64,000 bases of DNA from Candidatus Magasanikiibacteriota bacterium (GCA_030650025.1 JAUSEN010000025.1:601-64600); one strand, 5' to 3'. Shown: positions 22,222-53,320, counted from the stretch's first letter. Notes: generated by a model not told the origin, from the sequence alone. Numbers and translations: made by a program.

Positions 22222-23178
22222 CTACAAAGAAGCACTTAAATCCAGCCAATTGGGCAAACTTAACTCTTGCGCGCGAGCGGTTTTGGTAAGGCCAAATGAC
22301 TCTAACAGAGCCATTATTTTGCCACTATCCCCTGCCGGAATTAGAGATTTTAAATTTTTTAACAAAACCTTACGTTTACTAGAAAATCCGAGCCGCGCCA
22401 GTTTAAATAATTTAGATATTTCTTGAGAAGAGAGGCCGGGGGTTTTGGGTGTTAGCTTAATAACAGCCGAATCCACCCTCGGCACTGGCCAGAAAGACTC
22501 GCGAGGAACAGGAAAAACGATGGCTGGCTTTGAGTAAAGCTGAACAGACAAGGCCAAAAGGGACATCGCACCTGGCAGAGCGCAAATTCTCTCCGCCACT
22601 TCCCGCTGGATCATCAAAATCATTTCGCTTGGAGGATTACTAGATTCTAAAAACATTTTTATAAGCGGTGAGGTAATTTGGTACGGGATATTGGCGATGA
22701 CTTTGTATGGACTCACCACCTCTGCTTCCAGCAAAACCTTCCCCTGCCCTGTCCTCGACGTGTATCCTCCCCCCTGCCCCCTCCATTGCGATGGAGGGGG
22801 AGTGGCAATTCCCCTCCCCTTCGCAAAGGGGAGGGCGAGGGTGGGGTTAAAGCGATTCAAAACATTACCCCAAATAATTTCTAAATTATTTATTTTTTTT
22901 TCCTGAATATTATTTTCCCAATAATCTTGTAACTTTTTTTCAATCTCAAAACCAAACACTCTCCCAGCTTGCTCCGCGAGCGAGAGGGTGAGAGTGCCAA
23001 ACCCGGGCCCGACTTCTACCACCGTATCTTGTTTACTTAAATTCGCCACGGCCAAAATTTTATTAATTACCTCGGCGTCTATCAAAAAATTTTGGCCGTA
23101 TTGCTTACTCGGCCGCAGGCCATATTTTTGGCAAAGATGCTTTAGGTGGTCGGGGTTAAAGAGTTTAGTATTATCCAT
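22222..23178 (-). CDS. rsmA: 16S rRNA (adenine1518/1519-N6)-dimethyltransferase RsmA/KsgA carrying an in-frame GC-rich insertion.
   Basis: The N-terminus (QNFLIDAEVINKI..VVEVGPGFGTLT) is typical of KsgA. An inserted segment LALPFAKGRGIATPPPSQWRGQGGGY is encoded by the repeat element. Confidence 0.9.
   Translation of the reverse strand: MDNTKLFNPDHLKHLCQKYGLRPSKQYGQNFLIDAEVINKILAVANLSKQDTVVEVGPGFGTLTLSLAEQAGRVFGFEIEKKLQDYWENNIQEKKINNLEIIWGNVLNRFNPTLALPFAKGRGIATPPPSQWRGQGGGYTSRTGQGKVLLEAEVVSPYKVIANIPYQITSPLIKMFLESSNPPSEMILMIQREVAERICALPGAMSLLALSVQLYSKPAIVFPVPRESFWPVPRVDSAVIKLTPKTPGLSSQEISKLFKLARLGFSSKRKVLLKNLKSLIPAGDSGKIMALLESFGLTKTARAQELSLPNWLDLSASL
22766..22848. mobile_element. Intragenic GC-rich two-hairpin palindromic element, copy 1 (in rsmA).
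   Basis: Module B (CCCTCCATTGCGATGGAGGG) plus module A (CCCCTCCCCTTCGCAAAGGGGAGGG) with a shared ACCCCACCCTCGCCC flank. It is in-frame with no stop codons. Confidence 0.75.
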
Positions 23179-23180
23179 AA

Positions 23181-24278
23181 TTATTTTTTGATAATCACAC
23201 CGATGTCCGCATTAACTTCAACCAAATCTCCTGTTTTTAATAATTTAGTAACGTCTCTAACGCCGATAATGCAGGGAGTCCCCAGTTCACGGGCTACTAT
23301 GGCCGCGTGGCTCGTGAGGCCGCCTGTTTCGGTAACTAAGGCCGCGGCCAGCTTTATGGCAGGCAGGTACTCGACGGCAGTATACGGTGCTACTAAAATA
23401 TCACCTCGCTTCATTCGCCGTATCGCGGCCGTGCTATTTTTTACAACTATAACTCTCCCCGCCGCTACTCCACGCCGGGCTATTTGCCCCCGCAGTGTAT
23501 TGTTACTATTGCTCACTAAAAGTTCTTTAAATCGGCCGCGCTTTAAAAACTGGAGAGCAGCTTTACCCGCGTATATTTTTAATTTTTTTTCTTCGTAAAA
23601 TAAAATGGTTATTTTTTTACGGGCGTTAATTAGTCGACCAGCTATTTTACCGCGCCTTAGACCCAGAATAATCTCTGGTATGGTTAGATACTCAATATCA
23701 TTGGCACGGAGTCTTAAAATTTTAGCAATGGCTCCAAATAAATTATTACAATTATTCCGGCGACGCGCGAGTAATTTAGAAACATCTTCTTTAATATATG
23801 CGCCAACTTGGATAATTTTATTTAAGTTATTCGTGGGTTTACTATTTATACCACCAACTAACTCACTAAATAAATGCAATAGATTGCTCATGGCGTCTAA
23901 GGGAGCAGCCAGTTCTCGAATTTTGACTAAATCCCTTCCCGCCTCTCTACTGTTACTTTTATTATATTTAACTCGAGCGATTTGATCTAAAAACTTTTTT
24001 AATTTTTTACTTCGTGCCTTATATTCGACGAAAATAATTTTTATCCATGTTTTGCTACGCAATTTATTTTGGTAAACGGATTTTAAATTATTAATATCGT
24101 CTACAAGTCCATATTTTTCTTGCCAGCCATTTTTAATGATTGATAAAATACGGTATTGCGCGCCCACATATTTTTTAAACCACTTAAAAAATAATTCATC
24201 GGCGTAATTAAGGGCAACCAGCGGCGCTAAGTTGTTGCTAAAAAATAATTGGTATTGTTTGCGGCGAAAATTGATCAT
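23181..24278 (-). CDS. PEP-utilising-enzyme mobile-domain protein.
   Basis: C-terminal motif VTETGGLTSHAAIVARELGTPCIIG, typical of the phosphohistidine swivelling domain of PEP synthase/PPDK. Confidence 0.55.
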   Translation of the reverse strand: MINFRRKQYQLFFSNNLAPLVALNYADELFFKWFKKYVGAQYRILSIIKNGWQEKYGLVDDINNLKSVYQNKLRSKTWIKIIFVEYKARSKKLKKFLDQIARVKYNKSNSREAGRDLVKIRELAAPLDAMSNLLHLFSELVGGINSKPTNNLNKIIQVGAYIKEDVSKLLARRRNNCNNLFGAIAKILRLRANDIEYLTIPEIILGLRRGKIAGRLINARKKITILFYEEKKLKIYAGKAALQFLKRGRFKELLVSNSNNTLRGQIARRGVAAGRVIVVKNSTAAIRRMKRGDILVAPYTAVEYLPAIKLAAALVTETGGLTSHAAIVARELGTPCIIGVRDVTKLLKTGDLVEVNADIGVIIKK

Positions 24279-24290
24279 ACTTTTAATAAA

Positions 24291-25427
24291 TTATTCTGGT
24301 AGCAAACCAGCACTCGTATACCGATTACTCGCATTCCACATCAGCCACCCCGCGTCAGTGTATTTTTCAATCTCGTCTATTTGCGCGCGAATTTTGACTG
24401 CATCATAAACCGCCCCTAAATTAAAGGCCTGAATCCAAGGCCGCAGTTTGGCCCGCTGGCCAGTAAATTTAGGCATTCCGAGTTTAAGACCATGGGCAAA
24501 TACTTCACCCGGGTGCGCGGCAGGATTTTGGAAACCTAAATGACCGCGCGGGTAATGCGAAGGGTACATCATGGGAGAAATATAATCAGTGGAGCTCACG
24601 GCGTCCACAATACGCTGACCGATATTAAGATCAAAATTATTTTTCGCTTCCATGGTTAAACCAAACATGTCGAGCGAGAGCCACACCGGCTCGTTAGCCA
24701 ATTCGCTACTTAACGTTTGATAAAATTCCCGCATGATTTGGGATTTAGCGCGGCCACCCATGTTATAAACCACGCGGCTCATATCGCCGTCCGAAGGGAA
24801 GCGCACATAATCAAAATTTATTTCGTCAAACCCAAAATCCGCCACTTCCCTGGCAATATCAAAATTATATTTCCAGACTTCGCGGCGTGTCGGATCCACC
24901 CAAGAGAGGCCGCGATGGTCCCGCCACACCAAATTATCTTTATCTTTTATGGCCCAACCAGGCTTTTTGGCGGCCAAAACCGGATCCTGAAAAACAGTTT
25001 GCCGAGCAATTACGTAAATATTTTTGTCATGCAGTTTTTTTATGATGCCGGGCAAATCTGGTAATAAATTTCTCGATAAACCATTTTTCTTGGCCAGAGG
25101 CACGCGGCTTTTATACAAAATATATCCCGTGTAATCTTTGATGTCTATGATCACGGCATTTAATTCTGTCTCATCGATTAATTTTATTATCTCATCGAGT
25201 TTTTTGGGGTCGCTCGCGGAATAAGCGGTAAGATACAAGCCTTTGGCAGTTTGGGCCGGCGGCTTTGCCTTGGGTTTGTTCTCGAGTAAAAAGGCCAAGG
25301 GGCTAAATACGCTCGGCGTGGCATAACTCGTTTCACTGTTCGCGGCTTGCCACTGAAATAAAATAGCGCCCGCGCCTAAAAGCGCGGCTAAGACGGAAAT
25401 TAAAATGTAATTACGCGAGGTCAACAT
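24291..25427 (-). CDS. Putative TIM-barrel glycoside-hydrolase-like protein (GHL/DUF4015-like) with an N-terminal TM anchor.
   Basis: 378-aa ORF. The segment WVDPTRREVWKYNFDIAREVADFGFDEINFDYVRFP resembles the DUF4015 putative glycosyl hydrolase family. Recalled similarity only. Confidence 0.4.
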   Translation of the reverse strand: MLTSRNYILISVLAALLGAGAILFQWQAANSETSYATPSVFSPLAFLLENKPKAKPPAQTAKGLYLTAYSASDPKKLDEIIKLIDETELNAVIIDIKDYTGYILYKSRVPLAKKNGLSRNLLPDLPGIIKKLHDKNIYVIARQTVFQDPVLAAKKPGWAIKDKDNLVWRDHRGLSWVDPTRREVWKYNFDIAREVADFGFDEINFDYVRFPSDGDMSRVVYNMGGRAKSQIMREFYQTLSSELANEPVWLSLDMFGLTMEAKNNFDLNIGQRIVDAVSSTDYISPMMYPSHYPRGHLGFQNPAAHPGEVFAHGLKLGMPKFTGQRAKLRPWIQAFNLGAVYDAVKIRAQIDEIEKYTDAGWLMWNASNRYTSAGLLPE

Positions 25428-26535
25428 ATACTTCGCCTTGGCGCAAAATTTTTATTTTGCTATTTAAGACGCTAACTAATGTACTCGGTTTATTTTTTGT
25501 CAAGATGCCATAATCGAGCATAATATCCGGCTGATATTCTTGATTTTTAAATTGCTCGGCGAGTATCTTAGCGTCATAAATCTCACCGGCATCCGATAAA
25601 TTAGCCGATGTGGCCACGAGAGGCCGACCAATTTTTTCGGTAATTGATTTTAGAAGAGGGTGCGTGGTAACGCGCAGGGCGATGGTGCCAGCCTGCGATA
25701 TCACACCTCTCGCGATGCCACTGCCAATCCTCCCCCCCGCCCCCTCCATTGCTATGGAGGGGGGGACGCGATCTCTGTTTTTAAAAACTTCATCTATAAT
25801 TGAATCTAAAACAGCATCTAAATTATTAAAGACCTGTAAATTATCGAATCTAATAACTTTATAGCCAGAATCTACCAACCACTTAGTGCGTAGTCTGTCC
25901 TTTTCTACTTGATCTTTATCCACATAATGCACATCACCATCTAATTCGATAACTAGTTTTGTGTCGGGTTGAAAAAAATCAACTATGTAAGAGCCTACCC
26001 CATGCTGACGTCTAAATCTGATACCGTTCAATCGCTTATCCCGTAAATGATTCCAAAGAATTAACTCGGCTTTCGTTTGATTTTTTCTAAGTTCCCGGCG
26101 TCTTACTAAGCTAGATATGTAACCAGCTATTCGCTCAAATCGAAATTCGCGTCCCCTCCCCTTAGCAAAGGGGAGGGTAGGGTGGGGTCTGGTATCGCCA
26201 TCGGCCAATCCACCCCCTACCCCCTCCATTGCTATGGAGGAGGGGTGACGATACTCCCCCACCACCGTCAAAGCCCCGGGCCAATATTTTTTAGAAATTT
26301 CTTCTAACTGCTTGCTCCACGCTAAATATTTTTTTGCTTCGGCAATGCTCGGCACGACCACTAGGAGCGGCTTCTTAAAATCCCGGCCTTTAATTTTAAA
26401 AATTTTGTCTACGGCTTGTTGGTTAGTGGCATCACACCCGAGACCATACGACGTTTCGGTGGGAAAAACAATAATCTTGCCATTCAGTATATCGACGACG
26501 AGCTCGGCTAAATTACACTCGGTTAAAATTTTCAT
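25411..26535 (-). CDS. tsaC: L-threonylcarbamoyladenylate synthase TsaC/YrdC interrupted in-frame by a DUF559 endonuclease-like domain flanked by palindromic repeat modules.
   Basis: YrdC N-terminal part (FPTETSYGLGCDATN...) and C-terminal part (TIALRVTTHPLL...PLVATSANLS...). Between them lies the DUF559 motif set (TKAELILWNHL...FRRQHGVGSYIVDFF...VIELDGDVH...VIRF). Confidence 0.85.
   Translation of the reverse strand: MKILTECNLAELVVDILNGKIIVFPTETSYGLGCDATNQQAVDKIFKIKGRDFKKPLLVVVPSIAEAKKYLAWSKQLEEISKKYWPGALTVVGEYRHPSSIAMEGVGGGLADGDTRPHPTLPFAKGRGREFRFERIAGYISSLVRRRELRKNQTKAELILWNHLRDKRLNGIRFRRQHGVGSYIVDFFQPDTKLVIELDGDVHYVDKDQVEKDRLRTKWLVDSGYKVIRFDNLQVFNNLDAVLDSIIDEVFKNRDRVPPSIAMEGAGGRIGSGIARGVISQAGTIALRVTTHPLLKSITEKIGRPLVATSANLSDAGEIYDAKILAEQFKNQEYQPDIMLDYGILTKNKPSTLVSVLNSKIKILRQGEVYVDLA
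25728..25770. mobile_element. Intragenic palindromic element module B, copy 2b (tsaC, distal flank of the DUF559 insert).
   Basis: CCTCCCCCCCGCCCCCTCCATTGCTATGGAGGGGGGG. It encodes PPSIAMEGAGG in-frame. Confidence 0.7.
25771..26150 (-). other. Embedded DUF559 (Vsr-like / PD-(D/E)xK-fold) endonuclease domain inside tsaC.
   Basis: About 125-aa segment matching the DUF559 consensus (LR..qT.aE..LW..L......FrRQ...g.YivDF......viElDG..H......D..R...L...G..viRf). Confidence 0.7.
26150..26250. mobile_element. Intragenic palindromic element (modules A+B), copy 2a (tsaC, proximal flank of the DUF559 insert).
   Basis: CCCCTCCCCTTAGCAAAGGGGAGGG ... CCCCTCCATTGCTATGGAGGAGGGG. It encodes PSSIAMEGVGGG...LPFAKGRG. 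Confidence 0.75.
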
Positions 26536-26536
26536 A

Positions 26537-26887
26537 CTAAACTTCAACTTCTTTCCAAACAATCTCAATGGCATTAAAATATTCTTTGGTAAATTTTACG
26601 AGCACTTCTGGATCAAATGGCTTGCAAGTATAACAATCGACAGTAAACAGTGGCGGATTTGTTGGATAACTATAAAAATGACTACCGGAAGATTTCCAAT
26701 GAATCCAACCACCATAACCCATGTCATGAGCGCTATAGGCAATGGGCTCAGATAGTACTTCCATTTTGCAAACTTCAGCAATCGCGAGTAAATATTTTTT
26801 AATTTCCTCTGGTTCAACAATCTTCTGTGTGGTACCCTCAATAATTACTCGCTGTCTAATTAAATTTGGCGCTAAATTTTTCCACAT
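26537..26887 (-). CDS. S-adenosylmethionine decarboxylase-like (pyruvoyl-dependent, SpeH/SpeD small type) protein.
   Basis: Motifs KSSGSHFYSYP...FTVDCYTCKPFD resemble the ESHxxxHTxPE...VDxFTCG signature of AdoMetDC proenzymes. Confidence 0.45.
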   Translation of the reverse strand: MWKNLAPNLIRQRVIIEGTTQKIVEPEEIKKYLLAIAEVCKMEVLSEPIAYSAHDMGYGGWIHWKSSGSHFYSYPTNPPLFTVDCYTCKPFDPEVLVKFTKEYFNAIEIVWKEVEV

Positions 26888-26900
26888 ATATTAAAATTAC

Positions 26901-27890: not shown

Positions 27891-27892
27891 AA

Positions 27893-29014
27893 TTAGCGCT
27901 GCTCTTTAATCCACCGCAAATACGCTTCAGAGAGCGGCAATAACTTGCCTTCTAAAACACTCTCCGGATCCGTGGATTTATATTCTGTCCGGTGGTCGTT
28001 AACCATGTGGTAAGGGTGCAAGACGTAAGAACGAATCTGGTTGCCCCACTCCGCGCTTTTCCATTCGCCGCGCAGTTCTTGCCGCGCCGCGGCCTTTTTC
28101 TCTTCTTCTAATTTAAATAATTTTGATTTTAAAATCTTCATGGCCATGTCTTTGTTTTGCGTCTGGCTCCGTTCGTTTTGGCACTGAACAGTAATATTTG
28201 TCGGTAGATGCACGATGCGGACGGCCGAATAAGTGGTGTTGACACTCTGGCCGCCTTTGCCGCCGCTCATAAAAGTGTCAATGCGCAAGTCATCGGGTTT
28301 AATTTCAAGGGTGACTGCTTCGGCAATTTCGGGAATAACTTCTACCGAAGCAAAGCTGGTGTGGCGCATTTTTTCGGCGTCAAACGGCGAGATGCGCACC
28401 AAGCGGTGCACGCCGTGCTCGCTTTTTAAATATCCATAGGCATGGCGGCCAGTAACTTCAAAAGTGATGGATTTATAACCGGCTTCTTGCCCGCGGGATT
28501 CGTCTAAAATTTTTACTGGCCAATTTTGGGATTCACAAAAACGAAAAATCATGCGCACCAGCATCTCGGCCCAATCTTGCGCCTCGGTGCCGCCGCTCCC
28601 GGCATGCACGGCCACAATCGCGCCATTCGTGTCGTACGGGCCATTTAATAACAGAACAAATTCGTAGTCGGTAAATTGCTTCTCAAGTTCGGCAGTTTGT
28701 TTGGCAATTTCTGTAATCAATGATTCGTCCCGTTGTAGGGGCGGGGTTGCCCCGCCCCTGGGCGCGGAGATCGCGCCCCTACACAATTCAATAAGATCTT
28801 GCACCTGTTTTTCTAGTTCACCCCACTTATCCACCTCTCTTTTAATATCTTGATAATCTTGCGAGATAGTCTGCGCGGTTTTAGGATCTTGCCAAAATCC
28901 AGAGCTATTCATCTCGCCCTCTAATTGTTGTAATTTTATTTTTAGCTCGGGCAATTTCAAAAGCGCGGTCGTAGCCGCGATTTTAGTTTGGAGATTATTT
29001 AAGCGATCTAACAT
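27893..29014 (-). CDS. prfB: Peptide chain release factor 2. The ORF is continuous with no programmed frameshift, and it carries an in-frame nested GC palindrome.
   Basis: SPF motif (RISPFD) and GGQ motif (GGQSVNTT). 373 aa in one frame. Confidence 0.9.
   Translation of the reverse strand: MLDRLNNLQTKIAATTALLKLPELKIKLQQLEGEMNSSGFWQDPKTAQTISQDYQDIKREVDKWGELEKQVQDLIELCRGAISAPRGGATPPLQRDESLITEIAKQTAELEKQFTDYEFVLLLNGPYDTNGAIVAVHAGSGGTEAQDWAEMLVRMIFRFCESQNWPVKILDESRGQEAGYKSITFEVTGRHAYGYLKSEHGVHRLVRISPFDAEKMRHTSFASVEVIPEIAEAVTLEIKPDDLRIDTFMSGGKGGQSVNTTYSAVRIVHLPTNITVQCQNERSQTQNKDMAMKILKSKLFKLEEEKKAAARQELRGEWKSAEWGNQIRSYVLHPYHMVNDHRTEYKSTDPESVLEGKLLPLSEAYLRWIKEQR
28731..28786. repeat. Nested GC-rich palindrome in-frame inside prfB (family 2).
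   Basis: TGTAGGGGCGGGGTTGCCCCGCCCCTGGGCGCGGAGATCGCGCCCCTACA. The outer stem encloses two inner hairpins. It encodes ISAPRGGATPPLQ. Confidence 0.6.
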
Positions 29015-29131
29015 AATTTTGATACGTCATTGCGAGGAGGGAACGAAGTGACCGACAAAGCAATCTTATCATTATTTATTGCAAGGATTGCTTCGTCAGC
29101 GCCTTAACGGCGCTTCCTCGCAATGACAACG

Positions 29132-36313: not shown

Positions 36314-37096
36314 CTATTTTTTAATCTCGAGCGCGGTCGCGGGCACATCCGAAACTACTGAAACTGCTAAGGCTTTATTTTTTTGTCGCGAAAAAAGAAT
36401 CATTTGTTGGGCGACCATTAAGGCCGTGCTAAAAAACCAATAAAGCGTAAGGCCGGCCTGAAGCTTCATACCGATAATCACAGTCATAGCAGGCATGAGA
36501 TATAACATTTGTTTGTTCATCATGGCCATCATGTTCTCGTCTTTGCCGCCAGCTCCAGCGGCCGGCGGGGAGGGTTTCCGAATCATCATTTTGGCTTGCC
36601 AGAATTGAGCGGCGCCAGCGAGCACCGCGAGCGCGATACTAGGTTTGGCGAGATCAAAAAAACCCAGAGACATTTGTTTGATTACTTCGGGATTATGCAC
36701 AAACGGATACAAATTGGCCGCGAGGTTTTGGCCAGCGAGCCCATCGCGCAACACCAAGTACAGCGCGATCAAGATCGGCAGTTGGATTAAAATAGGCAAA
36801 CAGCTCGTGAGCGGGTTGACCTTGTGCTCTTTGTAAAGCTTCATGGTCTCTTGCGCTAGGCGCTGTTGATCGGAGCCAAACTCTTTTTTAAGCGCGTCCA
36901 TTTTGGGCTGGAGCTCTTGCATGGATTTTTGCGCTTTAATCGACGAGTTGGTGAGCGGGTACAAAACTAACCGGATAATTATCGTGATAACCAAAATTAC
37001 AATGCCAACATCGTGCCCGGGAATAATATTATAGAGTACGACAAAAGCATTAAAAATCGGTTTATACAAAATTGCGTTAAATAAAGCCATGAACAT
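36314..37096 (-). CDS. yidC: Membrane protein insertase YidC (short form).
   Basis: YidC/Oxa1 core with conserved helices (LYPLT....Q..M..LQPKM..LK). Confidence 0.85.
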   Translation of the reverse strand: MFMALFNAILYKPIFNAFVVLYNIIPGHDVGIVILVITIIIRLVLYPLTNSSIKAQKSMQELQPKMDALKKEFGSDQQRLAQETMKLYKEHKVNPLTSCLPILIQLPILIALYLVLRDGLAGQNLAANLYPFVHNPEVIKQMSLGFFDLAKPSIALAVLAGAAQFWQAKMMIRKPSPPAAGAGGKDENMMAMMNKQMLYLMPAMTVIIGMKLQAGLTLYWFFSTALMVAQQMILFSRQKNKALAVSVVSDVPATALEIKK

Positions 37097-43286: not shown

Positions 43287-46200
43287 TTAAACCACCACAC
43301 TCACTAATCTCCCCTTAACATAGATGATCTTCTTCGGCGTTTTACCTTCTAACCACTTGTGAATTTTTTCTGACTCTAGCGCTAATTTTTTGATTTCGTC
43401 TTCGGAAATATCGGGCGCCACTGTTAATTCATCGCGCACTTTGCCGTTGATTTGAATGACGATGGTAATAATTGATTCTTTGGCGAGCTCGGGGTCAAAC
43501 TGTGGCCAGGCCGAATATGCAAGAGGCGTACCGTCACCAAATTTAGACCATAACTCCTCGGCAAGATGCGGCGCAAAAGGTGAAAGTAATTGAATGAGTG
43601 TTGAGTAGTGAGTAGGGAGTAGCGAAATTTGTTTGGTCATTTCATTAACCAATTCCATCAACTTCGCAATCGCGGTATTAAATCGCATCGCTTCAATATC
43701 TTCGGAAACTTTTTTAATGGTTTGGTGAAGAATAGAAAGGGTTTGCCTTTGCGAGACCTCCCCCCACCCCTCCTTTGCTAAGGAGGGGGGAGCGAGCCCC
43801 CTCTCCATCGCAATGGAGAGGGCGGGGGGTGAGGATTCGCCTATCTTCTCCTGCAACCCCCATACCTTCTCTAAAAACCGCCGCACGCCAACTAGGCCGT
43901 TGGTATCCCACATCACGGCCTGATCAAACGGGCCCATAAACATAATATAGCAACGGAAAGCATCGGCCCCGAATTTTTCTATCATTTCGTCCGGGTTAAT
44001 TACGTTGCCGCGCGATTTGCTCATTTTTTCCCCATCCGGCCCCAAAATCATGCCGTGGCTAGTGCGTTTTTTATACGGCTCGCTCGTGGGCACCACGCCA
44101 ATATCAAATAAAAACTGATTCCAAAAACGGGAATATAATAAATGCAAAACAGTGTGTTCCATACCGCCATTGTACCAATCCACTGGAGTCCAGTACCGTA
44201 ATTTTTCTGGCGAAGCAAATTCTTTATCGTTGTTGGGATCAGTATAACGTAGAAAATACCAAGACGACCCGGCCCAGTTCGGCATAGTGTCAGTTTCGCG
44301 TCTCGCCTCTCCACCACAGCGTGGGCAGGTGGTGTTTACCCAACTAGTCATGGTCGCGAGCGGCGACTCGCCCGTGTCGGTGGGCTGGTATTTTGCGACG
44401 GCGGGGAGTTCTAACGGCAATTCACTTTCGGGGAGAGGAACCCAGCCGGTATGTTTACTCTGTAAAAATAAATCTAATAAAACTGGAATTTCAGGTTCAA
44501 CCGTAAAATGTTCGTAGCCAGAAACTGTTTGAACTTGCCAGCCCTCTGGTAACACGTCGTGACCAACGGAATGAACACTTGGATCATCGTTAGAAAAAAT
44601 TGCGTTGCCACTAAAAACCTTATTTTTTATTTTCTGCCAGTCAAGTGGTGCGTTCCAAAACGATTGAACTGTTGAATAATCTCTCTCTGGTTTCTTTTTC
44701 TTTTTAATCTCAAGATCCTCGTCGGTCAATGTTGCCAGCGCGGGCGCAACCAGATAAAGATAACCAATTTTATTTTTTAATTTTTCTAATAAGTGTAAGG
44801 CTGCTTTGCCACCAAGGCTGTGACCAACAATAACATCATCTTCGCCAAGCTGTTTAGCTAGAGGCAATAATTCTTCAAGCCATTTTTCTAATATCGGCCT
44901 ATCGGTAGTGGTCATTGTTGGGGTCATCACCTCGAAGCCTCTTAATTCTAATTCTTTCTTTACCCAAGGTAGCCAATTTTTATCAGCTCTGCCCGTGAAG
45001 CCATGAATAATCAAAACTTTCTGCTTTTTATTTTTACAATTCTCGCAATACACCAGCGGAATCGGCTCGCCCCAGTAATGCTGGCGCGAAAACACCCAGT
45101 CGCGCAGTTTGTAATTTACTTGTCGCTTGCCCCACCCTTTGGCTTCAATGTAATCCATTATTTTATTTTTTGCTTCCATGATCGGCAAGCCGTTGAGAAA
45201 CTCGCTATTTACCATGGCACCAGTTTCTTCCTGAACCTGCTCTGGCTTGGTGATTGGCGATGCATCGCCATCGGGCCCAACCACCACGCGGATAATCTCC
45301 AGGCCCATCTCAATCGCAAATTCAAAATTGCGTAGATCGTGACCAGGAACGCCAACCAGGGCGCCAGTGCCAACATTGCCTAAAACAAAATCACTCACAT
45401 ACATTGGCATCTTAAACCCAGTGAGCTGATTAATCGCATACCAGCCGGTGAACACACCCGTTTTTTTCTTTCCGGCCTGGGCGCGCTCCATATCGGTCTT
45501 TTTCTTTGTTTCGGCAATATATTTTTCGACTTTAACGCGCTCTGGAAACTTTTCTAAATTTTCGATTACAAACTTGCCATCGGGAGCCAGAGCAATAAAC
45601 GTAGCGCCAAAATTTGTATCTGGCCGCGTGGTGAAAACAGTAACCGGCGCGCCCGATCCTTCAACTTCGTATGTAATGTTTATGCCTTCGCTCCGCCCAA
45701 TCCAGTTCTCCTGTTGCACGCGCGCGGGGGTAATATAGTCAACGGTTTTTAAGCCCTCCAAAAGCTTGTCGGCATATTTGGTAATCGCGAGCATCCACTG
45801 GTCTTTATCACGCTGTTCAACCGGCGTGCCACAGCGCTCGCAACAACCATTTATCACTTCTTCGTTCGCGAGGCCGGTTTTGTCCTTGGGGCACCAATTG
45901 ATAGGCAGATTTTTCTTATAGGCCAAGCCGTGCTTAAAAAACTGTAGAAACATTTGTTGTGTCCATTTATAATACGCGGGGTCGGAAGTATTTACCTGGC
46001 GCGACCAATCAAAACTATACCCCAGAGCTTTGAGCTGACGGGTAAAATTCGCAATATTTTTAGCCGTCACCTCCGCGGGCGGCCGACCCGTCTTAATCGC
46101 AAAATTTTCAGTCGGGAGGCCAAAAGCGTCAAAGCCAATGGGATATAAAACATTGTAGCCTTCCATGCGACGCTTCCGGCTTACAATGTCCATGGCCGTA

Positions 46201-46376
46201 AACGGCCTAGGATGGCCGACATGCAGGCCTTCGGCCGATGGGTAAGGAAATTCTATGAGAGAATAAAACTTTTTTTCCGCATGCTTAAAATCTTCCGTAA
46301 CTTCAAAAGTTTTCTGGTCTTCCCAAAATTTCTGCCATTTCTTTTCTATCTTATGAGGATCGTATTTTTTTGGCAT
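43287..46376 (-). CDS. leuS: Leucine--tRNA ligase carrying an inserted alpha/beta-hydrolase domain and an in-frame repeat element.
   Basis: HIGH region (PYPSAEGLHVGH), CP1 editing domain, KMSKS. 1029 aa, against about 860 aa for typical LeuRS. Confidence 0.9.
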   Translation of the reverse strand: MPKKYDPHKIEKKWQKFWEDQKTFEVTEDFKHAEKKFYSLIEFPYPSAEGLHVGHPRPFTAMDIVSRKRRMEGYNVLYPIGFDAFGLPTENFAIKTGRPPAEVTAKNIANFTRQLKALGYSFDWSRQVNTSDPAYYKWTQQMFLQFFKHGLAYKKNLPINWCPKDKTGLANEEVINGCCERCGTPVEQRDKDQWMLAITKYADKLLEGLKTVDYITPARVQQENWIGRSEGINITYEVEGSGAPVTVFTTRPDTNFGATFIALAPDGKFVIENLEKFPERVKVEKYIAETKKKTDMERAQAGKKKTGVFTGWYAINQLTGFKMPMYVSDFVLGNVGTGALVGVPGHDLRNFEFAIEMGLEIIRVVVGPDGDASPITKPEQVQEETGAMVNSEFLNGLPIMEAKNKIMDYIEAKGWGKRQVNYKLRDWVFSRQHYWGEPIPLVYCENCKNKKQKVLIIHGFTGRADKNWLPWVKKELELRGFEVMTPTMTTTDRPILEKWLEELLPLAKQLGEDDVIVGHSLGGKAALHLLEKLKNKIGYLYLVAPALATLTDEDLEIKKKKKPERDYSTVQSFWNAPLDWQKIKNKVFSGNAIFSNDDPSVHSVGHDVLPEGWQVQTVSGYEHFTVEPEIPVLLDLFLQSKHTGWVPLPESELPLELPAVAKYQPTDTGESPLATMTSWVNTTCPRCGGEARRETDTMPNWAGSSWYFLRYTDPNNDKEFASPEKLRYWTPVDWYNGGMEHTVLHLLYSRFWNQFLFDIGVVPTSEPYKKRTSHGMILGPDGEKMSKSRGNVINPDEMIEKFGADAFRCYIMFMGPFDQAVMWDTNGLVGVRRFLEKVWGLQEKIGESSPPALSIAMERGLAPPSLAKEGWGEVSQRQTLSILHQTIKKVSEDIEAMRFNTAIAKLMELVNEMTKQISLLPTHYSTLIQLLSPFAPHLAEELWSKFGDGTPLAYSAWPQFDPELAKESIITIVIQINGKVRDELTVAPDISEDEIKKLALESEKIHKWLEGKTPKKIIYVKGRLVSVVV
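43757..43838. mobile_element. Intragenic palindromic element (A-variant plus B-variant), copy 4, in leuS.
   Basis: CCCCTCCTTTGCTAAGGAGGGG ... CCCTCTCCATCGCAATGGAGAGGG. It encodes SPPALSIAMERGLAPPSLAKEGWG. Confidence 0.7.
44460..45040 (-). other. RBBP9/YdeN-type serine hydrolase (alpha/beta-hydrolase) domain inserted into LeuRS between WGEPIP and RETDTMP.
   Basis: VLIIHGFTGRADKNWLPW...VIVGHSLGGKAAL (GxSxG nucleophile elbow) ...LVAP...NDDPSVH..GYEHF. Confidence 0.65.
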
Positions 46377-47782: not shown

Positions 47783-47862
47783 ATTTTTTAGGGAATTAAA
47801 ATCTAATTGCCTTTACATACCAGTAGTATAACAGAAATATACAGCTCGTCAACCGCAACCGG

Positions 47863-48966
47863 TTACCGTTGGCATCTCGGGCAAAAATGCGTCCCTCGGC
47901 CAGCAATTTTAATTTTTTTAATTATTTCCTCGCATTTTTTGCACTTTTCTCCGTCTCTGTCATAGACATTTAAAAAATCCGTATAATTGCCTTTTTTACC
48001 ACTCGAATCGAGGAAATTACGAAACGTCGTACCGCGATGTTTAAGGGCGGCGCGCAGAATTTTAGGGATCGCCAAAAATAATTTTTTTTGTTCTAATTTG
48101 GTAACCGCGCCAACGCGCCGATTAGGACGAACGCCGGCGGCAAAGCAAACTTCGTCCACATAAATATTCCCGAGTCCGGCGATAAGTTCTTGGTTTAAAA
48201 GCAGGGCTTTTAGATTTGTATTCTGACGTTTTTTAAAGAGTAAAGAAAAATATGCAAAAGTGAATCCTCCCCCTGCCCCCTCCATTGCGATGGAGGGGGG
48301 TCGCGATTTCCCTCCCCTTCGCAAAGGGGAGGGCGACCCGCCCGAATCGCTACGCGAAGCGTTGCGGGCAGGGGGTGGGGTCTCGATCGGTTCGGGACCA
48401 AATTTTTTTAGCGCTCTCTCGACGTCCTGCGCAGTTGCTAATTTCATGTAACCAAACAAACGCAGGTCGTTAAAAAATAACTCTCCTCCATCTTGGAACG
48501 CAAAGGCGATACGCGTATGCTTATTCGGTAGGCATTCAATGTCGCTTTCCGACAATTTGTGCCCGCCGGCCACGATTTCCACCCCGCCCTTTTTTTCCCG
48601 CTCATCACCGCCATAAAGGCGGGATCCCGCCACGAGGCGGTGATCACCGCCATAAAGGCGGGATCCCGCCACGAGGCGGCGATAAATTAACTGGCCGGTC
48701 ATTTTAAGATGTACTAACAAACTTTGGGCTCCGTGCTTCAATCTAAAAATCATCAGCTTCCCGCGCCGATCAATGTCTCTAAAACTATTGCCCGTGAGAG
48801 CTTGAATAAATTTTGTACTCTGGCCGCCAACGCTCGTTTTTTTATAAACCTTAACTTGAACAATTTTTTTGTTCAAGATTTTATGGCGCAAGTCTTGACG
48901 AATAGTCTCTACCTCTGGTAGTTCGGGCATAGAATTACACTGTATCAAAATTACAAAATTTCGCAA
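47863..48966 (-). CDS. mutM: Formamidopyrimidine-DNA glycosylase (Fpg/MutM) with a tandem 13-aa duplication and an in-frame repeat element.
   Basis: PELPEVE N-terminus and a C-terminal zinc finger (CxxC...CPRC). Confidence 0.85.
   Translation of the reverse strand: MRNFVILIQCNSMPELPEVETIRQDLRHKILNKKIVQVKVYKKTSVGGQSTKFIQALTGNSFRDIDRRGKLMIFRLKHGAQSLLVHLKMTGQLIYRRLVAGSRLYGGDHRLVAGSRLYGGDEREKKGGVEIVAGGHKLSESDIECLPNKHTRIAFAFQDGGELFFNDLRLFGYMKLATAQDVERALKKFGPEPIETPPPARNASRSDSGGSPSPLRRGGKSRPPSIAMEGAGGGFTFAYFSLLFKKRQNTNLKALLLNQELIAGLGNIYVDEVCFAAGVRPNRRVGAVTKLEQKKLFLAIPKILRAALKHRGTTFRNFLDSSGKKGNYTDFLNVYDRDGEKCKKCEEIIKKIKIAGRGTHFCPRCQR
48264..48390. mobile_element. Intragenic palindromic element (B+A plus an extra small hairpin), copy 5, in mutM.
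   Basis: CCCTCCATTGCGATGGAGGGGGG ... CCCTCCCCTTCGCAAAGGGGAGGG ... GACCCCACC. It encodes PSPLRRGGKSRPPSIAMEGAGGG. Confidence 0.75.
48603..48680. repeat. Perfect-to-near-perfect tandem duplication (2 x 39 bp) inside mutM.
   Basis: ATCACCGCCATAAAGGCGGGATCCCGCCACGAGGCGG(T/C)G repeated head-to-tail. It encodes HRLVAGSRLYGGD twice. Confidence 0.85.
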
Positions 48967-49016
48967 TTAAAAAATCCCAAGAATTTAACTCGGGATTTTA
49001 TATCATAAAACAATAA

Positions 49017-49394: not shown

Positions 49395-49404
49395 AATTTT
49401 GGTT

Positions 49405-51423: not shown

Positions 51424-51616
51424 GAGTAAAAAAACTATAAGCCTTATTTAAATTTAGGCTAATCTGCGACTATTATATAGAAGAAACGAGTTTAAGTCAA
51501 TGGAAGGTATGACATGAAAGGCATGCCGGTAGGACATTTTAACTTCCGGTTGACATGAAAGGCACACAGTTTGACAAAATTCTAATACTACGCTATACTA
51601 AGTCGTTCTTTGAAAA

Positions 51617-51690
51617 TAATTGTGGTGGGGGGAAAAATGGCCAAAATATGGCTTTTTTTGTAAAATTCGCCATTTTTCCCCCCACCAATT
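51617..51690. repeat. Perfect 22-bp inverted repeat (AATTGTGGTGGGGGGAAAAATGGC / GCCATTTTTCCCCCCACCAATT) with a 28-nt spacer. It lies just upstream of the high-GC island.
   Basis: Read directly from the sequence. It lies between the infB start and the GC-island ORF. Confidence 0.8.
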
Positions 51691-51750
51691 CACCACAACC
51701 TTCACAAGAGCGCGTAATTCGGCGGGGAACGCTCTAGACAAGGATAGGAC

Positions 51751-52320
51751 ATGAAATGGAGCCACATCAAAGAACTGCTCGTCCGCCTCGTCGGCCGCGA
51801 GCGCAACCCCGGCACCGATGACAACCCCGAACGCGAGCAGAGCAACGACGGCCAGCCCCACGAGGTCGACGTCAGCGAGCTCCTCGGTGCGCTCTTGGGC
51901 GGCCTGGCCCACGTGCGGAGCACGCCGTTCGTGATCAAGATCACCGTCATGGCCGGTGGCGCGGATCTCTCGCAGTCCAACCTCGAGGGCGTTGTCTTCG
52001 ACCAGGAGTCCGACCACCCGTGGCGCACGCGGTGGGTCGTCGGCGGCGGGCTCGTGCTCGCCATCTCGGGCTGTACCACCTGCCAGCGCGAGAAGCTCGA
52101 GGTGGTCAACTTCGCGACCCACGACTGGGCGCTCGCGGAGACCCGGCGCCCGCGCCCGATCCGCATGGATGACGTGGCCAAGCTCACGGCCAAGCTCATC
52201 CAGCGCGGGGAGGACGTGCGCGCCCTCGCCGAGCTCGTGACCGAGGCCCAGCGTCTCTTCACGACGCTGGCCACGAAGGAGGAGCCGGCGCAGGCCACCA
52301 AGAGGCGCGGCCGGCGCTGA
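51751..52320 (+). CDS. Hypothetical protein encoded by a very high-GC foreign island, with codon usage unlike the rest of the window.
   Basis: 189-aa ORF. G/C is strongly enriched at third codon positions in this frame only. The surrounding genome is AT-richer. Confidence 0.55.
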   Translation: MKWSHIKELLVRLVGRERNPGTDDNPEREQSNDGQPHEVDVSELLGALLGGLAHVRSTPFVIKITVMAGGADLSQSNLEGVVFDQESDHPWRTRWVVGGGLVLAISGCTTCQREKLEVVNFATHDWALAETRRPRPIRMDDVAKLTAKLIQRGEDVRALAELVTEAQRLFTTLATKEEPAQATKRRGRR

Positions 52321-52460
52321 ACGGTCGAGGGGCAGTGGTGCGCGACGAAGAACCAATTCGTCGTCGCATCACCTTTTTGCGATAATTGAATCTAAGTTAG
52401 TTAACAACTTAAATTATCATTATCCCAAGAAGGTGACGACGAATTGAAGAAATTATATTA

Positions 52461-52490
52461 ACCCTGCACCGTTCTGGTGCAGGGTTTTTT
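52461..52490 (+). terminator. Rho-independent terminator (CCCTGCACC-GTTCT-GGTGCAGGG plus T6).
   Basis: Perfect 9-bp stem followed by a T-run, downstream of the GC-island ORF. Confidence 0.6.
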
Positions 52491-52552
52491 ATTTGCCCGG
52501 TTACTTGCTTTTTTTTATTTTTGCGATTATTCTAGTGGTATAAATATTTATT

Positions 52553-53320
52553 ATGACCCCTCTCCCTCCTGATTTCCTCCTCATCAACAAACCAGCGGGC
52601 TGGACCAGTTTTGACGTGGTGAATTTTATTAGAAAAAAAGCGCGCGTCGATTCTGGAAATAAAAAAATCCGTGTGGGCCACGCGGGCACGCTTGATCCGT
52701 TCGCCACCGGCCTCTTAATTGTAGGCGTGGGGCGGGAGGCAACTAAAAAATTAGATGAATTTAAAAATTTGCCCAAGACTTATCTGGCCACTATAAAATT
52801 GGGAGCGACCAGTGATACGGGAGATGTGACTGGAGTAATTACCGAGACCCCACCCTCGCCCTCCCCTTTGCTAAGGGGAGGGGAATCGCCCTCCTCCATC
52901 GCAATGGAGGGGGTAGGGGGAGGATTCGCCTTTGGCAAGGAGGGGCTGGGGGAAGTTTCGGAAAAACAAATCAAAAAAATCTTAAAACAATTTCTTGGCA
53001 AGCAAAGGCAAATTCCACCGATGTACTCGGCTAAAAAAATTGGCGGGCAGAGATTGTATAAATTAGCGCGCGCCGGAAAAACTATTAAACGAGAGCCGAG
53101 TGAAATTGAAATTTATAAAATCAAATTGCTCTCTTATGATTGGCCAATTCTAAAAATCGAAGTAACGTGCGGCGCGGGGACGTATATCCGTACTCTGGCC
53201 GAAGACATTGGCAAAAAACTGGGGACCATGGCCTACTGCCAAGAACTAACCCGCACTAAAATTGGTCCATATGCGCTAGAGCAAACCACTGATTTCCGAA
53301 GCAAGTCGCCAGCAGCTTGA
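52553..53320 (+). CDS. truB: tRNA pseudouridine(55) synthase TruB carrying an in-frame repeat element.
   Basis: GHAGTLDPFATGLL catalytic motif. A roughly 37-aa GC-rich insert lies in the middle. Confidence 0.9.
   Translation: MTPLPPDFLLINKPAGWTSFDVVNFIRKKARVDSGNKKIRVGHAGTLDPFATGLLIVGVGREATKKLDEFKNLPKTYLATIKLGATSDTGDVTGVITETPPSPSPLLRGGESPSSIAMEGVGGGFAFGKEGLGEVSEKQIKKILKQFLGKQRQIPPMYSAKKIGGQRLYKLARAGKTIKREPSEIEIYKIKLLSYDWPILKIEVTCGAGTYIRTLAEDIGKKLGTMAYCQELTRTKIGPYALEQTTDFRSKSPAA
52846..52955. mobile_element. Intragenic palindromic element (A plus B plus degenerate A), copy 6, in truB.
   Basis: GACCCCACCCTCGCCCTCCCCTTTGCTAAGGGGAGGGGAATCG ... CCTCCATCGCAATGGAGGGGG. It encodes PSPLLRGGESPSSIAMEGVGGG. 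Confidence 0.75.

Follow-up and report, generated by a model that had tools for sequence, protein, structure and literature searches.

Repeat units inside housekeeping genes

The window analysed here (the whole stretch of DNA, 64,000 nucleotides) belongs to a CPR genome, as the earlier sequence-only reading had guessed, and its TsaC and TruB proteins match the NCBI records of a Candidatus Magasanikbacteria MAG with 100% identity. It carries a GC-rich repeated element at seven sites in six housekeeping genes, i.e., those for KsgA, TsaC (two sites), a ComEC-type metallo-beta-lactamase (MBL), LeuRS, Fpg and TruB (Table 1). Module A, CCCTCCCCTTNGCNAAGGGGAGGG, is found at 22812, 26154, 38724, 48310, and 52859, and module B with its variants at 22779, 25742, 26222, 38778, 43768, 43801, 48278, and 52892, while neither module matched dinucleotide shuffles of the window even once. 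The presence of the element in these six genes is thus confirmed. The count of seven copies holds for the sites, but what they actually contain is 13 full units plus a partial one and a nested palindrome of 36 nt, arranged as solo, paired and nested units. As had been proposed, the elements are well above their surroundings in G+C content (59–74% vs. 42–52% in the surrounding 2-kb windows). The identical core shared by the MBL and TruB copies is also real, although it extends over 44 nt (38710-38753 and 52845-52888) and not 41.

All the units are found within long ORFs identified by Pfam and all are in frame, in agreement with the first description. Coding density is ca. 92%, so that the probability of all seven sites being coding is 0.57 and their intragenic position is by itself unsurprising. 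Along similar lines, 29 of the 42 reading frames of the elements are free of stops, vs. 37% for random windows, and an open frame is therefore weak evidence of selection.

Table 1. Host genes, repeat units and nuclease domain in the window (positions counted from its first nucleotide).
Feature	Position	Strand	Remarks
KsgA/RrnaAD ORF	22222-23178	-	Pfam
ksgA unit pair	22766-22848		aa 111-138, NPTLALPFAKGRGIATPPPSQWRGQGGG; third arms outward
ksgA unit B	third arm 22766-22774; hairpin 22777-22800
ksgA unit A	hairpin 22812-22835; third arm 22839-22848
Sua5/YrdC (TsaC) ORF	25411-26574	-	Pfam
tsaC solo unit B	25728-25770		downstream of DUF559 in gene sense; encodes PPSIAMEGAGG
tsaC solo unit B, arms	third arm 25729-25737; hairpin 25740-25763
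Complete DUF559 domain in tsaC	25789-26103	-	ORF aa 158-262; Pfam PF04480, E = 1.1e-33
tsaC unit pair	26150-26250		upstream of DUF559 in gene sense; encodes RHPSSIAMEGVGGGLADGDTRPHPTLPFAKGRGR; third arms inward, 20 nt apart
tsaC upstream unit A	hairpin 26154-26177; third arm 26180-26189
tsaC upstream unit B	third arm 26210-26217; hairpin 26220-26245		1 mismatch in hairpin
Metallo-beta-lactamase ORF	38476-39516	-	Pfam
MBL (ComEC-type) unit pair	38712-38812		aa 235-269; 29-nt spacer between hairpins
MBL unit A	third arm 38712-38720; hairpin 38724-38747
MBL unit C	hairpin 38777-38798; third arm 38801-38810
LeuRS ORF	43287-46376	-	Pfam
leuS unit pair	43757-43838		aa 847-874
leuS unit C	third arm 43757-43765; hairpin 43767-43788
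leuS variant unit B*	hairpin 43799-43822; third arm 43827-43835		stem CCCTCTCC/GGAGAGGG; third arm GGGTGAGGA
Fpg ORF	47863-48966	-	Pfam
mutM/fpg unit pair	48264-48390		aa 193-235
fpg unit B	third arm 48266-48273; hairpin 48276-48299
fpg unit A	hairpin 48310-48333; third arm 48373-48382		split by nested palindrome
fpg nested palindrome	48337-48372		36 nt (12 codons), different type; in loop 2 of unit A
TruB ORF	52553-53320	+	Pfam
truB units	52846-52955		aa 98-135
truB unit A	third arm 52847-52855; hairpin 52859-52882
truB unit B	hairpin 52889-52913; third arm 52916-52924		1 mismatch in hairpin
truB partial third unit	52928-52955

Three-armed architecture of the units

The elements had been described as two hairpin modules with GACCCCACCC as a flank. 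This sequence is in fact a third arm, present in every unit and overlooked in that description. Each unit (ca. 36 nt) is composed of a homopyrimidine arm, a loop of 4–8 nt, the complementary homopurine arm, ca. 3 nt, and a G-rich third arm, the mirror image of the purine arm, in which G faces G and A or T faces A, so that a single DNA strand can fold as a hairpin plus a third strand, a purine-motif triplex. Most of the hairpins are perfect, as had been claimed for all of them, but those at 26220 and 52889 carry a mismatch. Of the 11 perfect hairpins of the window, 10 have a mirror third arm (8/9 matches or better) on one side and one side only, and in the eleventh it has been displaced by the nested insert.

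The pattern extends to other loci. Taking the window together with loci L001-L099, 195 out of 257 pyrimidine/purine hairpins have a third arm, the spacer being 3 nt in 165 of these, and where the stem is asymmetric a mirror arrangement was the better fit in 177 cases and a direct copy in 19. The purine arms of this set are of 46 different kinds, each with its matching third arm, and 97% of the base triples are G.G (1177), A.T (331), or A.A (198), with 48 of other kinds. When third arms were dealt among stem types of equal length the fit fell from 100 to 24%, a figure that is partly circular since the permutation was restricted to passing units. In LeuRS, a variant in which the stem GGAGAGGG goes with the third arm GGGTGAGG illustrates how the third arm changes along with the stem. 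Judging from these sequence patterns, the window units would be able to fold into triplexes. RNA folding, one of the checks suggested earlier, gave stable hairpins only (ViennaRNA; -12.9 kcal/mol for the solo unit, -25 to -43 kcal/mol for paired regions, z-scores of -2.7 to -5.4). A motif for G-quadruplexes (3 G or more in each of four runs, 1–7 nt apart) occurs only in the four uninterrupted copies of unit A; units B and C do not have it, and G-quadruplexes are therefore not the common principle. We have shown that the window elements are members of the repeat class known as BoxC, PIT, or triplex motif (TM).

Insertion at protein loops

At the five sites outside tsaC the inserts are absent from orthologues in related CPR contigs that are largely syntenic, and the flanks are conserved: the Fpg, LeuRS, and TruB inserts are missing from L018, that of KsgA from L127 and L128, and that of the MBL from L127. 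Structural homologues without inserts (Thermotoga maritima TruB, Bacillus subtilis KsgA 6ifs and, for Fpg, MutM 1l1t) place them at short loops or linkers. Both the alignment of orthologues and the mapping onto structures, which the sequence-only reading had called for, therefore support that the elements were inserted at the nucleotide level, instead of being ancestral features of the proteins. Unit number at a given codon can vary, as in the truB of L017, where only unit A is present at the codon occupied in the window, with 36/36 nt identical, while the rest of the gene is only 66% identical (38% at third codon positions). In fpg, a 36-nt insert found as a single copy in the window has split a unit, falling between the hairpin and the third arm of unit A. 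Among the sequences compared we observed no transposition event, target-site duplication or true empty-filled site pair in one population, nor could a target-site duplication be defined by comparison with the relatives.

A nuclease domain within tsaC

Between the two tsaC copies, within one loop of the protein, there is a whole DUF559 domain, overlooked in the first description, that provides the main mechanistic lead. DUF559 is a ubiquitous, uncharacterised Vsr-like nuclease. The domain is in frame, with no stop codon before the flanking TsaC sequence, and corresponds to a Vsr-like PD-(D/E)XK endonuclease domain (match to PDB 3hrl, E = 3.5e-17). Foldseek gave TM scores of 0.87 with 3hrl, 0.80–0.82 with the homing endonuclease I-Bth0305I and 0.53 with Vsr, and all 18 columns that are invariant in an alignment of 25 DUF559 proteins are kept. 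The solo unit B on one side of the domain is a direct repeat of the unit B on the other. AlphaFold modelled the two halves of TsaC with pLDDT values of ca. 90, the DUF559 domain with 70–86 and the linkers encoded by the units with less than 50. Pfam detected only Sua5_yciO_yrdC, DUF559, and MTES_1575 in this ORF, with no intein/Hint domain, and Rfam no intron, so nothing points to the insert being spliced out.

The same DUF559 insertion was found in ca. 25 TsaC homologues from CPR genomes, and the domain is conserved over long divergence. In L127, a relative, there are just two units in 21 kb and they lie on either side of it, and the TM sequences beside orthologous tsaC DUF559 domains differ between lineages but are always present. 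Given the shared gene order and a remnant (P0026), the insertion seems to be an old one that was inherited vertically and lost in places; in other words, it shows persistence and not recent mobility.

Units in other phyla and beside DUF559 genes

The exact module-A palindrome (22 specified bases) was found in 16 contigs (14 genomes) from many phyla, when far fewer than one would be expected. The palindrome is present in cyanobacteria, Bacteroidota, Proteobacteria, Chloroflexota, Armatimonadota, and other CPR lineages. With this distribution and three-armed units, the elements are not a two-hairpin family private to this genome. In CPR loci 15/22 units were intragenic vs. 0/15 in other phyla, and in-frame intragenic units in CPR genomes appear to be a new result.

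We have also analysed 80 metagenomic loci, the best hits of one DUF559 subfamily (characterized by the KFRRQHGI motif). Within 200 bp of DUF559 there were 109 units, or 3.54 per kb, compared with 0.146 per kb in the rest of these loci and 0.54 per kb in distant non-coding DNA. Density decreases steadily with distance from the gene, from 5.4 per kb (0–50 bp) to ca. 0.06 per kb beyond 1.6 kb. At least one adjacent unit was present in 57/80 loci, and none was detected within 200 bp in the other 23/80. This shows that having triplex units at the flanks is much more frequent for free-standing DUF559 genes than for DNA elsewhere, which also appears to be a new result. Free-standing DUF559 proteins bear tails that are translated units, and in Escherichia coli K-12 a TMECO lies ca. 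165 bp from ycjD, a DUF559 gene. At two loci (L075 and L061) the unit that bears DUF559 has both its ends in common with a gene-less pair nearby. Orientation around the gene (upstream 33 “+” and 9 “-”; downstream 25 “-” and 15 “+”) is a majority rule only, and the tsaC copy of the window departs from it. Most units have no DUF559 gene nearby (15/16 genome loci).

Possible origin of the insertions

The explanation that we favor, with a probability of roughly 55%, is a selfish system made of a nuclease and triplex repeats whose insertions survive in protein loops, with an inferred role of the nuclease in mobility. DUF559 with its flanking triplex units would be the selfish cassette, and solo units and pairs its non-autonomous derivatives, in the way of REP/REPIN with RAYT or MITEs with IS. 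The nuclease might nick or cut at or near folded units, and repair or template switching might then copy units to new sites, preferably beside existing ones. We know of no lone PD-(D/E)XK nuclease that carries out strand transfer, and this copying is hence hypothetical. The only survivors in a gene-dense CPR genome would be stop-free copies with a multiple of 3 nt in tolerant loops, translated as disordered linkers rich in Pro, Gly, and Ser, and the nuclease embedded in tsaC would be expressed within the host protein. It is also conceivable, although here we are more tentative, that the enzyme so far missing for the BoxC/PIT/triplex repeats in general is DUF559 (E. coli YcjD included). They would then form a pan-bacterial, hitherto unrecognised class of mobile elements with intrastrand-triplex ends, which in CPR would live inside essential genes with the repeats as disordered linkers and the nuclease as a TsaC domain.

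One alternative is that DUF559 parasitises the repeats, as a homing-endonuclease-like gene that targets the center of TM pairs and accumulates in pre-existing repeats, which would spread by another route, e.g., slippage or template switching at triplex-stalled forks, or another enzyme. At L075 and L061 the gene occupies precisely the central loop of a palindromic pair of which gene-less versions also exist, and units far outnumber the nuclease, with 13 to one DUF559 domain in the window and 23 TMECOs in E. coli K-12 to the single DUF559 gene examined, ycjD. The fold is close to that of I-Bth0305I, and in a study of fractured genes Vsr-like nucleases reportedly serve as homing endonucleases (PMC2677866). 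However, this scenario accounts neither for solo units on one side of DUF559 nor for direct-repeat arrangements (L026-L029 and the tsaC of the window), and it leaves the spread of the repeats unexplained. Besides, a TM that differs between lineages but is ever-present at the tsaC domain suggests a functional tie and not a one-off landing. We consider this alternative rather unlikely.

The units could otherwise be structural DNA signals maintained by the host (recombination or replication punctuation, supercoiling sinks) and DUF559 a housekeeping nuclease resolving such structures, with nothing mobile and insertions arising by local de novo duplication. No transposase was found near TMs, which have been tied to local rearrangement (Holder et al., 2015; PMC4666352), the homology around fabI-ycjD breaks ca. 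40 bp from the TMECO in ca. 38% of E. coli genomes, and the long conservation of the tsaC domain would fit a housekeeping function. We find this improbable, because identical stretches of 36–44 nt occur in unrelated genes, units remain identical between genomes in which the genes around them have reached saturation at silent sites, and the exact palindrome of 22 specified bases is shared by so many phyla. Nested units, the varying unit number at one codon and the five sites empty in contigs of largely the same gene order also speak against it, and signals inside essential coding sequences bring no evident benefit to the host. Least probable is a lineage-specific two-hairpin family analogous or related to Rickettsia palindromic elements (RPEs), which would account for in-frame, loop-located, translated insertions in housekeeping genes that are absent from orthologues, but the family is not lineage-specific, its unit is a three-armed triplex motif and not a plain hairpin pair, solo units exist and the published BoxC/PIT/TM definition fits, so that it survives only as an analogy of behavior.

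Comparison with known systems

RPEs are ca. 100–150 bp long and, to our knowledge, confined to Rickettsia (PMC1779305) and without a nuclease partner. Like RPEs and the in-frame MITEs of Coxiella (PMC5896051), the window units are in frame in housekeeping genes of a reduced genome, at surface loops, and are translated. The resemblance first noted thus holds for behavior (in frame, in loops, translated) but not as a family relationship, since architecture and composition are unrelated and no relation in sequence is to be expected. The host (Candidatus Magasanikbacteria) and the 36-nt triplex unit set them apart from RPEs. With regard to IS-derived MITEs, the pairs have an inverted architecture and those without a gene end in the same way as the DUF559 units, no target-site duplication could be defined and no DDE transposase was found.

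The REP/REPIN-RAYT system is similar in its short GC-rich palindromes, solo or in inverted pairs, and in a single-copy nuclease-type gene flanked by repeats that vastly outnumber it. Here, however, the partner is a PD-(D/E)XK (Vsr-like) nuclease and the units have a triplex-forming third arm. Pfam identified no RAYT/Y1 transposase among 45 ORFs of the window that were scanned, and there was no consistent GTAG/CGTC tag. Vsr/EDxHD-like homing endonucleases and inteins share with tsaC a nuclease ORF embedded in frame within an essential gene that provides for its expression, a patchy presence among orthologues and a similar fold (I-Bth0305I). The tsaC domain differs in being flanked by triplex repeats, no Hint blocks of an intein were detected beside it (Pfam), and its flanks are repeat-encoded and predicted to be disordered. 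The mobile GC clusters and double-hairpin elements of fungal mitochondria are also short GC-rich hairpin modules within a genome richer in AT, and they may be in frame with protein genes and accompany endonuclease ORFs. We know of no triplex arm described in them, and they differ in host compartment and sequence family.

The closest likeness is to BoxC, described in E. coli in the 1990s, and to the PIT elements, described in 2000 (both as cited in PMC4666352). The TM pattern (class II, purine motif) is C-stem, N3-6, G-stem, N3, G-stem, in which the last stem is able to pack antiparallel against the first G-stem by G.G-C and A/T.A-T triads, and triplex formation has been demonstrated by CD and NMR (Holder et al., 2015, NAR; PMC4666352). 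The window units share with this class a C-rich stem, a loop of 3–6 nt, a G-rich stem, a 3-nt loop, and a second, mirror G-rich stem, as well as stems of 8–10 nt, frequent inverted pairs and very high identity between copies. The class is found in Proteobacteria and cyanobacteria and is associated with variable regions. The TMECO consensus (CCCTCNCCC N3-6 GGGNGAGGG N3 GGGNGAGGG) had no match on either strand of the window, whose stems are CCCTCCCC, CCCCCTCC, and CCCCTCC, unlike the CCCTCNCCC...GGGNGAGGG of TMECO; the units are therefore members of the TM class but not strict TMECOs. In E. coli TMs are reported to be always intergenic, with no mobility genes found near TMECOs (Holder et al., 2015; PMC4666352), whereas all 13 full units of the window are intragenic and in frame; intergenic location describes the E. 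coli copies and is not a class-defining trait. No gene partner had been reported for the class, while here the partner is DUF559, and this adjacency gives BoxC/PIT repeats, for the first time, a candidate mobility enzyme.

In-frame copies in the window

The sequence-only reading had reported GC-rich palindromic copies in frame within housekeeping genes, and shuffling, Pfam assignment of the ORFs, frame checks and G+C content confirmed the observation. Its hairpin consensus sequences have 5 (module A) and 8 (module B) matches in the window and 0 in dinucleotide shuffles, so that chance and low complexity can be rejected; GACCCCACCCTCGCCC, which it had supposed to be a flank, has 3 matches. At all sites the copies are inside long ORFs with a Pfam identity (see table), in frame without exception, and their G+C is 59-74% vs. 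42-52% in the surrounding 2-kb windows. The identical core that had been claimed for the copies in the metallo-beta-lactamase (MBL) gene and in truB does exist (44 nucleotides in common), and the host is indeed CPR-like, TsaC and TruB being 100% identical to NCBI proteins from a 114-kb contig of a Candidatus Magasanikbacteria MAG. A known RNA family is ruled out as the identity of the elements, as an Rfam scan of the window at the gathering threshold found tRNA-Glu alone.

Positions of the features discussed in the text
Feature	Position	Strand	Remarks
TraG/VirB4-type P-loop gene	1730-3661		type-IV-secretion-like
Two giant ORFs after the PrgI gene	region 1730-21456		1547 and 2745 aa
Third repeat family	4301-4382, 13115-13196, 56160-56191		intergenic; inverted-repeat pair TGTCATCTTGAGCGAAGCGAAAGATCTAAG / CTTAGATTCTTCGCT..CTCAGAATGACA
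PrgI gene	4388-4819		type-IV-secretion-like
KsgA ORF	22222-23178	-	copy; Pfam
TsaC and DUF4015 glycosyl-hydrolase-like genes	24291-26574		overlap 17 nt
Sua5/YrdC (TsaC) ORF	25411-26574	-	copies; Pfam
Solo unit in TsaC	25728-25770		
Unit pair in TsaC	26150-26250		
prfA	27893-29014	-	RF-1 coding sequence
Compound palindrome in prfA	28722-28789		GC-rich; TGTAGGGGCGGGGTTGCCCCGCCCCTGGGCGCGGAGATCGCGCCCCTACA
Second-family copy	29024-29131		intergenic, after prfA
YidC	36314-37096		
NusA	37106-38362		
MBL ORF adjoining ComEC	38476-39516	-	copy; Pfam
ComEC	40318-42000	-	
Second-family copy	~40660-40760		in frame in ComEC; encodes ...RRTKQSFGNNTEIASSLASLVPRNDV...
LeuRS ORF	43287-46376	-	copy; Pfam
Alpha/beta-hydrolase (Ser_hydrolase) domain in LeuRS	~44520-45017		aa 454-619
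Fpg ORF	47863-48966	-	copy; Pfam
Tandem duplication in Fpg	48599-48676		39-nt unit, aa ~97-122; palindrome GGCGGGATCCCGCC (gene strand)
G+C block	51598-52356		~70% G+C; between infB and truB
TruB ORF	52553-53320	+	copy; Pfam
20-nt hairpin	54357-54376		CCTGCCTACCGGCAGGCAGG; upstream of RNase Y
20-nt hairpin	58519-58538		identical; just upstream of tRNA-Glu
tRNA-Glu	58570-58644		

A third arm

In each hairpin the 5' arm is homopyrimidine and the 3' arm homopurine, and 2-4 nt further on comes a third arm, rich in G, which mirrors the purine arm and has A or T facing A, as in CCCTCCCCTT-cgca-AAGGGGAGGG-cga-GGGTGGGGTT, in CCCCCTCC...GGAGGGGG-ca-GGGGGAGG and in the LeuRS variant CCCTCTCC...GGAGAGGG-cggg-GGGTGAGG. 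With a threshold of 8/9 matches, 10 of the 11 perfect window hairpins have this arm on one side and one side only, and in the eleventh, in Fpg, a nested 36-nt palindrome parts the arm from the hairpin. Over the window and the comparison loci L001-L099, 195 of 257 pyrimidine/purine hairpins have a mirror arm, in 165 of these 195 with a spacer of 3 nt, and for asymmetric stems the mirror fit is better than that of a direct copy 177 times and worse 19 times. These hairpins comprise 46 distinct purine arms, and their triads are G.G (1177), A.T (331), A.A (198) and other (48). Where units are paired, both outer arms can alternatively base-pair with one another. A G-quadruplex is ruled out as the unifying structure, its pattern being fitted by unit A alone.

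The palindrome of module A, exact in its 22 specified bases, was found in 16 contigs that belong to 14 GTDB species representatives, against a chance expectation, by our own estimate, of <0.1 in 596 Gb. Its hosts include Nomurabacteria, Minisyncoccia, Bacteroidales, Balneolaceae, Chitinophagales and Cellvibrionaceae, as well as Methylovirgula, Pseudanabaena, Nodularia, Chloroflexia and Chthonomonadaceae. These loci contain additional units with other stems, and the third arm co-varies with each.

Insertions in essential genes

To compare orthologues we drew on three contigs of relatives that retain much of the window gene order: L018 (LeuRS, Fpg, IF2, TruB, RNase Y) and L127 and L128 (GroES/EL, PrfA, TsaC, DUF4015, KsgA; L127 additionally MBL, NusA, YidC). 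L018 lacks the inserts of Fpg, LeuRS and TruB, L127 lacks that of MBL, and the one in KsgA is found in neither L127 nor L128; the flanks are well conserved throughout. PDB homologues of TruB, KsgA and Fpg align on both sides of the segment with a gap between (T. maritima TruB residues 88/93, B. subtilis KsgA 107/122, MutM 141/156), and show just short connecting segments where the inserts sit. The TruB of a further relative, L017, with 69% protein identity to that of the window, has one 36-nt unit at the same codon. The two units are identical in 36/36 nt vs. 66% in the remaining truB and 38% at its third codon positions, so that it is as a nucleotide sequence that the element has been either conserved or renewed. 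Ancestral protein segments are therefore ruled out, the segments being absent in orthologues and nucleotides, not residues, being conserved, and the earlier view of inserted elements is upheld: these are insertions, conserved as nucleotide sequence, nested and clustered. In other Magasanikbacteria unrelated repeat-like peptides occupy the same TsaC and TruB loops, which are insertion hot spots. No target-site duplication could be defined at the boundaries of the TruB, Fpg and LeuRS inserts.

At a coding density of 92% the probability that all 7 sites are intragenic is P = 0.57, so that such a location is expected by chance and it is the survival in essential genes that needs explaining. A position well inside a long open frame (in GatB, UvrB, TruB and the window genes) was found for 15 of 22 units of CPR loci vs. 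0 of 15 in other phyla; the unit of locus L008, in a Tgt-like frame truncated by the locus end, was left out of the count. Summed insert lengths are divisible by 3, several units measure exactly 36 nt, and 29 of 42 element frames are free of stops. The in-frame CPR copies would be the survivors of purifying selection.

Other repeats and neighboring genes

A second, unrelated palindromic family, ACGTCATTGCGAGGA...CGAAGCAATCT, has two copies in the window, and peptides of its type (SLRAKRSNL..IATSP..APRND, CHPE..SLPQNDK) fill TsaC/TruB loops of other Magasanikbacteria. A third family is represented by intergenic inverted-repeat pairs, the compound palindrome in prfA may be another in-frame repeat type, and one 20-nt hairpin recurs identically at two sites. 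The tandem duplication in Fpg, which the L018 orthologue lacks, gives RLVAGSRLYGGD twice. In LeuRS the inserted hydrolase domain is common to the L018 orthologue (777-4214), which additionally has a NUDIX domain in the editing region. The NusA N-terminal domain and YidC are each ~40 residues longer than the Pfam model, and the extra residues may be further loop insertions. The G+C block is far above its surroundings and contains an ORF of 252 aa for which Pfam gives no match; in L018 a 280-aa gene, unannotated, occupies the same place. Lastly, the type-IV-secretion-like genes are followed by giant ORFs, and L127 and L128 also have a giant ORF adjoining ksgA.

Association with DUF559 nucleases

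The TsaC ORF contains, in frame, a complete domain of the Vsr-like PD-(D/E)XK nuclease family DUF559 (aa 158-262, Pfam E = 1.1e-33), bracketed by a unit pair and a solo unit, with PSIAMEG(V/A)GG encoded by both flanks. The domain matches PDB 3hrl (E = 3.5e-17), and the AlphaFold model predicts it as folded (pLDDT 70-86), with the TsaC halves at ~90 and the unit-encoded linkers, whose peptides are predicted to be disordered, at <50. Foldseek retrieved YrdC/Sua5 structures for the host part and, for DUF559, 3hrl (TM-score 0.87), the homing endonuclease I-Bth0305I (0.80-0.82) and Vsr (0.53). An intein is ruled out, as Pfam detects no Hint domain in the insert. Around 25 CPR TsaC homologues (42-56% identity) also have DUF559 in this loop, between repeat-like peptides. 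One homologue (P0026) retains a remnant and others have none, and carriers and non-carriers are interleaved when ordered by host-part identity. Over 21 kb of L127 there are just two units, one on either side of the TsaC DUF559 domain. In many other Magasanikbacteria TsaC is fused with DUF4015 in one protein of ~575-590 aa (P0052, P0058, P0060 and others).

Tails resembling translated units are found at the N or C terminus of free-standing DUF559 proteins from many phyla. A metagenome scan with a narrower DUF559 alignment (the broad one was too diverse) returned 80 loci, 57 of them with at least one adjacent unit; 109 units were ≤200 bp from DUF559 (3.54/kb vs. 0.146/kb in the rest of the loci). 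Unit density falls monotonically with distance from 5.4/kb (0-50 bp) to ~0.06/kb (>1.6 kb), and the excess is still 6.6-fold vs. non-coding DNA >400 bp away. The third arm of the nearest upstream unit faces DUF559 in 33 cases and away in 9, and that of the nearest downstream unit in 25, with 15 opposite. Units and DUF559 genes are thus tightly associated physically. In L075 and L061 a long palindrome has the DUF559 gene in its central loop, and the DUF559-bearing unit and a gene-less pair close by have both ends in common, i.e., gene-less derivatives have the same ends. Adjacency can be rejected as a rule for the module-A genome loci, where DUF559 is within 8 kb in just 1 of 16; the majority of units lie far from DUF559 genes.

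In E. coli K-12 a TMECO, the triplex motif of this species, lies ~165 bp downstream of the DUF559 gene ycjD (comparison loci L099 = K-12, 1351205-1351245, and L129). The fabI-sapF interval is dimorphic, with TMECO and ycjD in 3346 of 5426 genomes and the eefRABC efflux operon replacing both in the remaining ~38%. Homology stops ~40 bp from TMECO, and the replacement is no clean empty site. For Salmonella, TMECO is reported as lacking. A scan of viral contigs gave one clear case of DUF559 with a unit (L100) and several DUF559 genes between pyrimidine/purine hairpins without third arm; carriage by phages is weakly suggested.

Two explanations may be proposed for this association. One would be that DUF559 homes into units instead of starting their copying. 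The other, which we prefer, is that the nuclease would itself start the copying of units. Among 45 window ORFs scanned with Pfam none was identified as a transposase or RAYT, neither a movement event nor a target-site duplication was observed and we know of no strand-transfer activity for a lone PD-(D/E)XK nuclease, so that the copying step is hypothetical. Our searches of the open-access literature found no paper tying BoxC/PIT/TM to DUF559 or ycjD, nor any account of palindromic repeats lying in frame in Patescibacteria, although absence is not proof. The partnership of this repeat class with DUF559 nucleases was apparently undescribed before. The association, strong and dependent on distance, yields a concrete hypothesis that is open to direct test in E. 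coli (ycjD and 23 TMECOs). If it is true, DUF559, a very large family without known function, would acquire a role.

Comparison with known repeats

Knowledge of BoxC/PIT/TM repeats goes back to the 1990s, and they have thousands of copies in enterobacteria and cyanobacteria. The architecture found here is that of E. coli BoxC, described anew first under the name of PIT element and later as an intrastrand "triplex motif" (TM or TMECO) with the pattern CCCTCNCCC N3-6 GGGNGAGGG N3 GGGNGAGGG, for which triplex formation in vitro was demonstrated by CD and NMR (Holder et al., 2015, PMC4666352). There are 3610 copies in 262 proteobacterial genomes and the motif is abundant in cyanobacteria; E. coli copies are always intergenic and often in inverted pairs, and the motif has been linked to local rearrangement, with transposases or integrases nearby "never found" (Holder et al., 2015, PMC4666352). 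This class had no known origin, function or mobility gene, and DUF559 is now a candidate partner. Judging from the sequence, the CPR copies would be read through in essential coding sequence, i.e., triplex-forming DNA would be tolerated there, which bears on selfish DNA in minimal, gene-dense genomes and on the many odd loop insertions of CPR proteins. For annotation, PLPFAKGRG, PSIAMEGGGG or PLFKEGLGEV in metagenomic proteins can be recognized as translated repeats.

The likeness to Rickettsia palindromic elements proposed earlier holds for behavior and fails for identity, membership being ruled out by host and architecture. REP/RAYT is likewise ruled out, as the window elements lack the tag and the 45 window ORFs scanned gave no Y1 transposase. 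None of the window units matches the strict TMECO consensus, although they fit the class definition of the triplex motif and belong to that class, of which they are a new, intragenic and translated variant.
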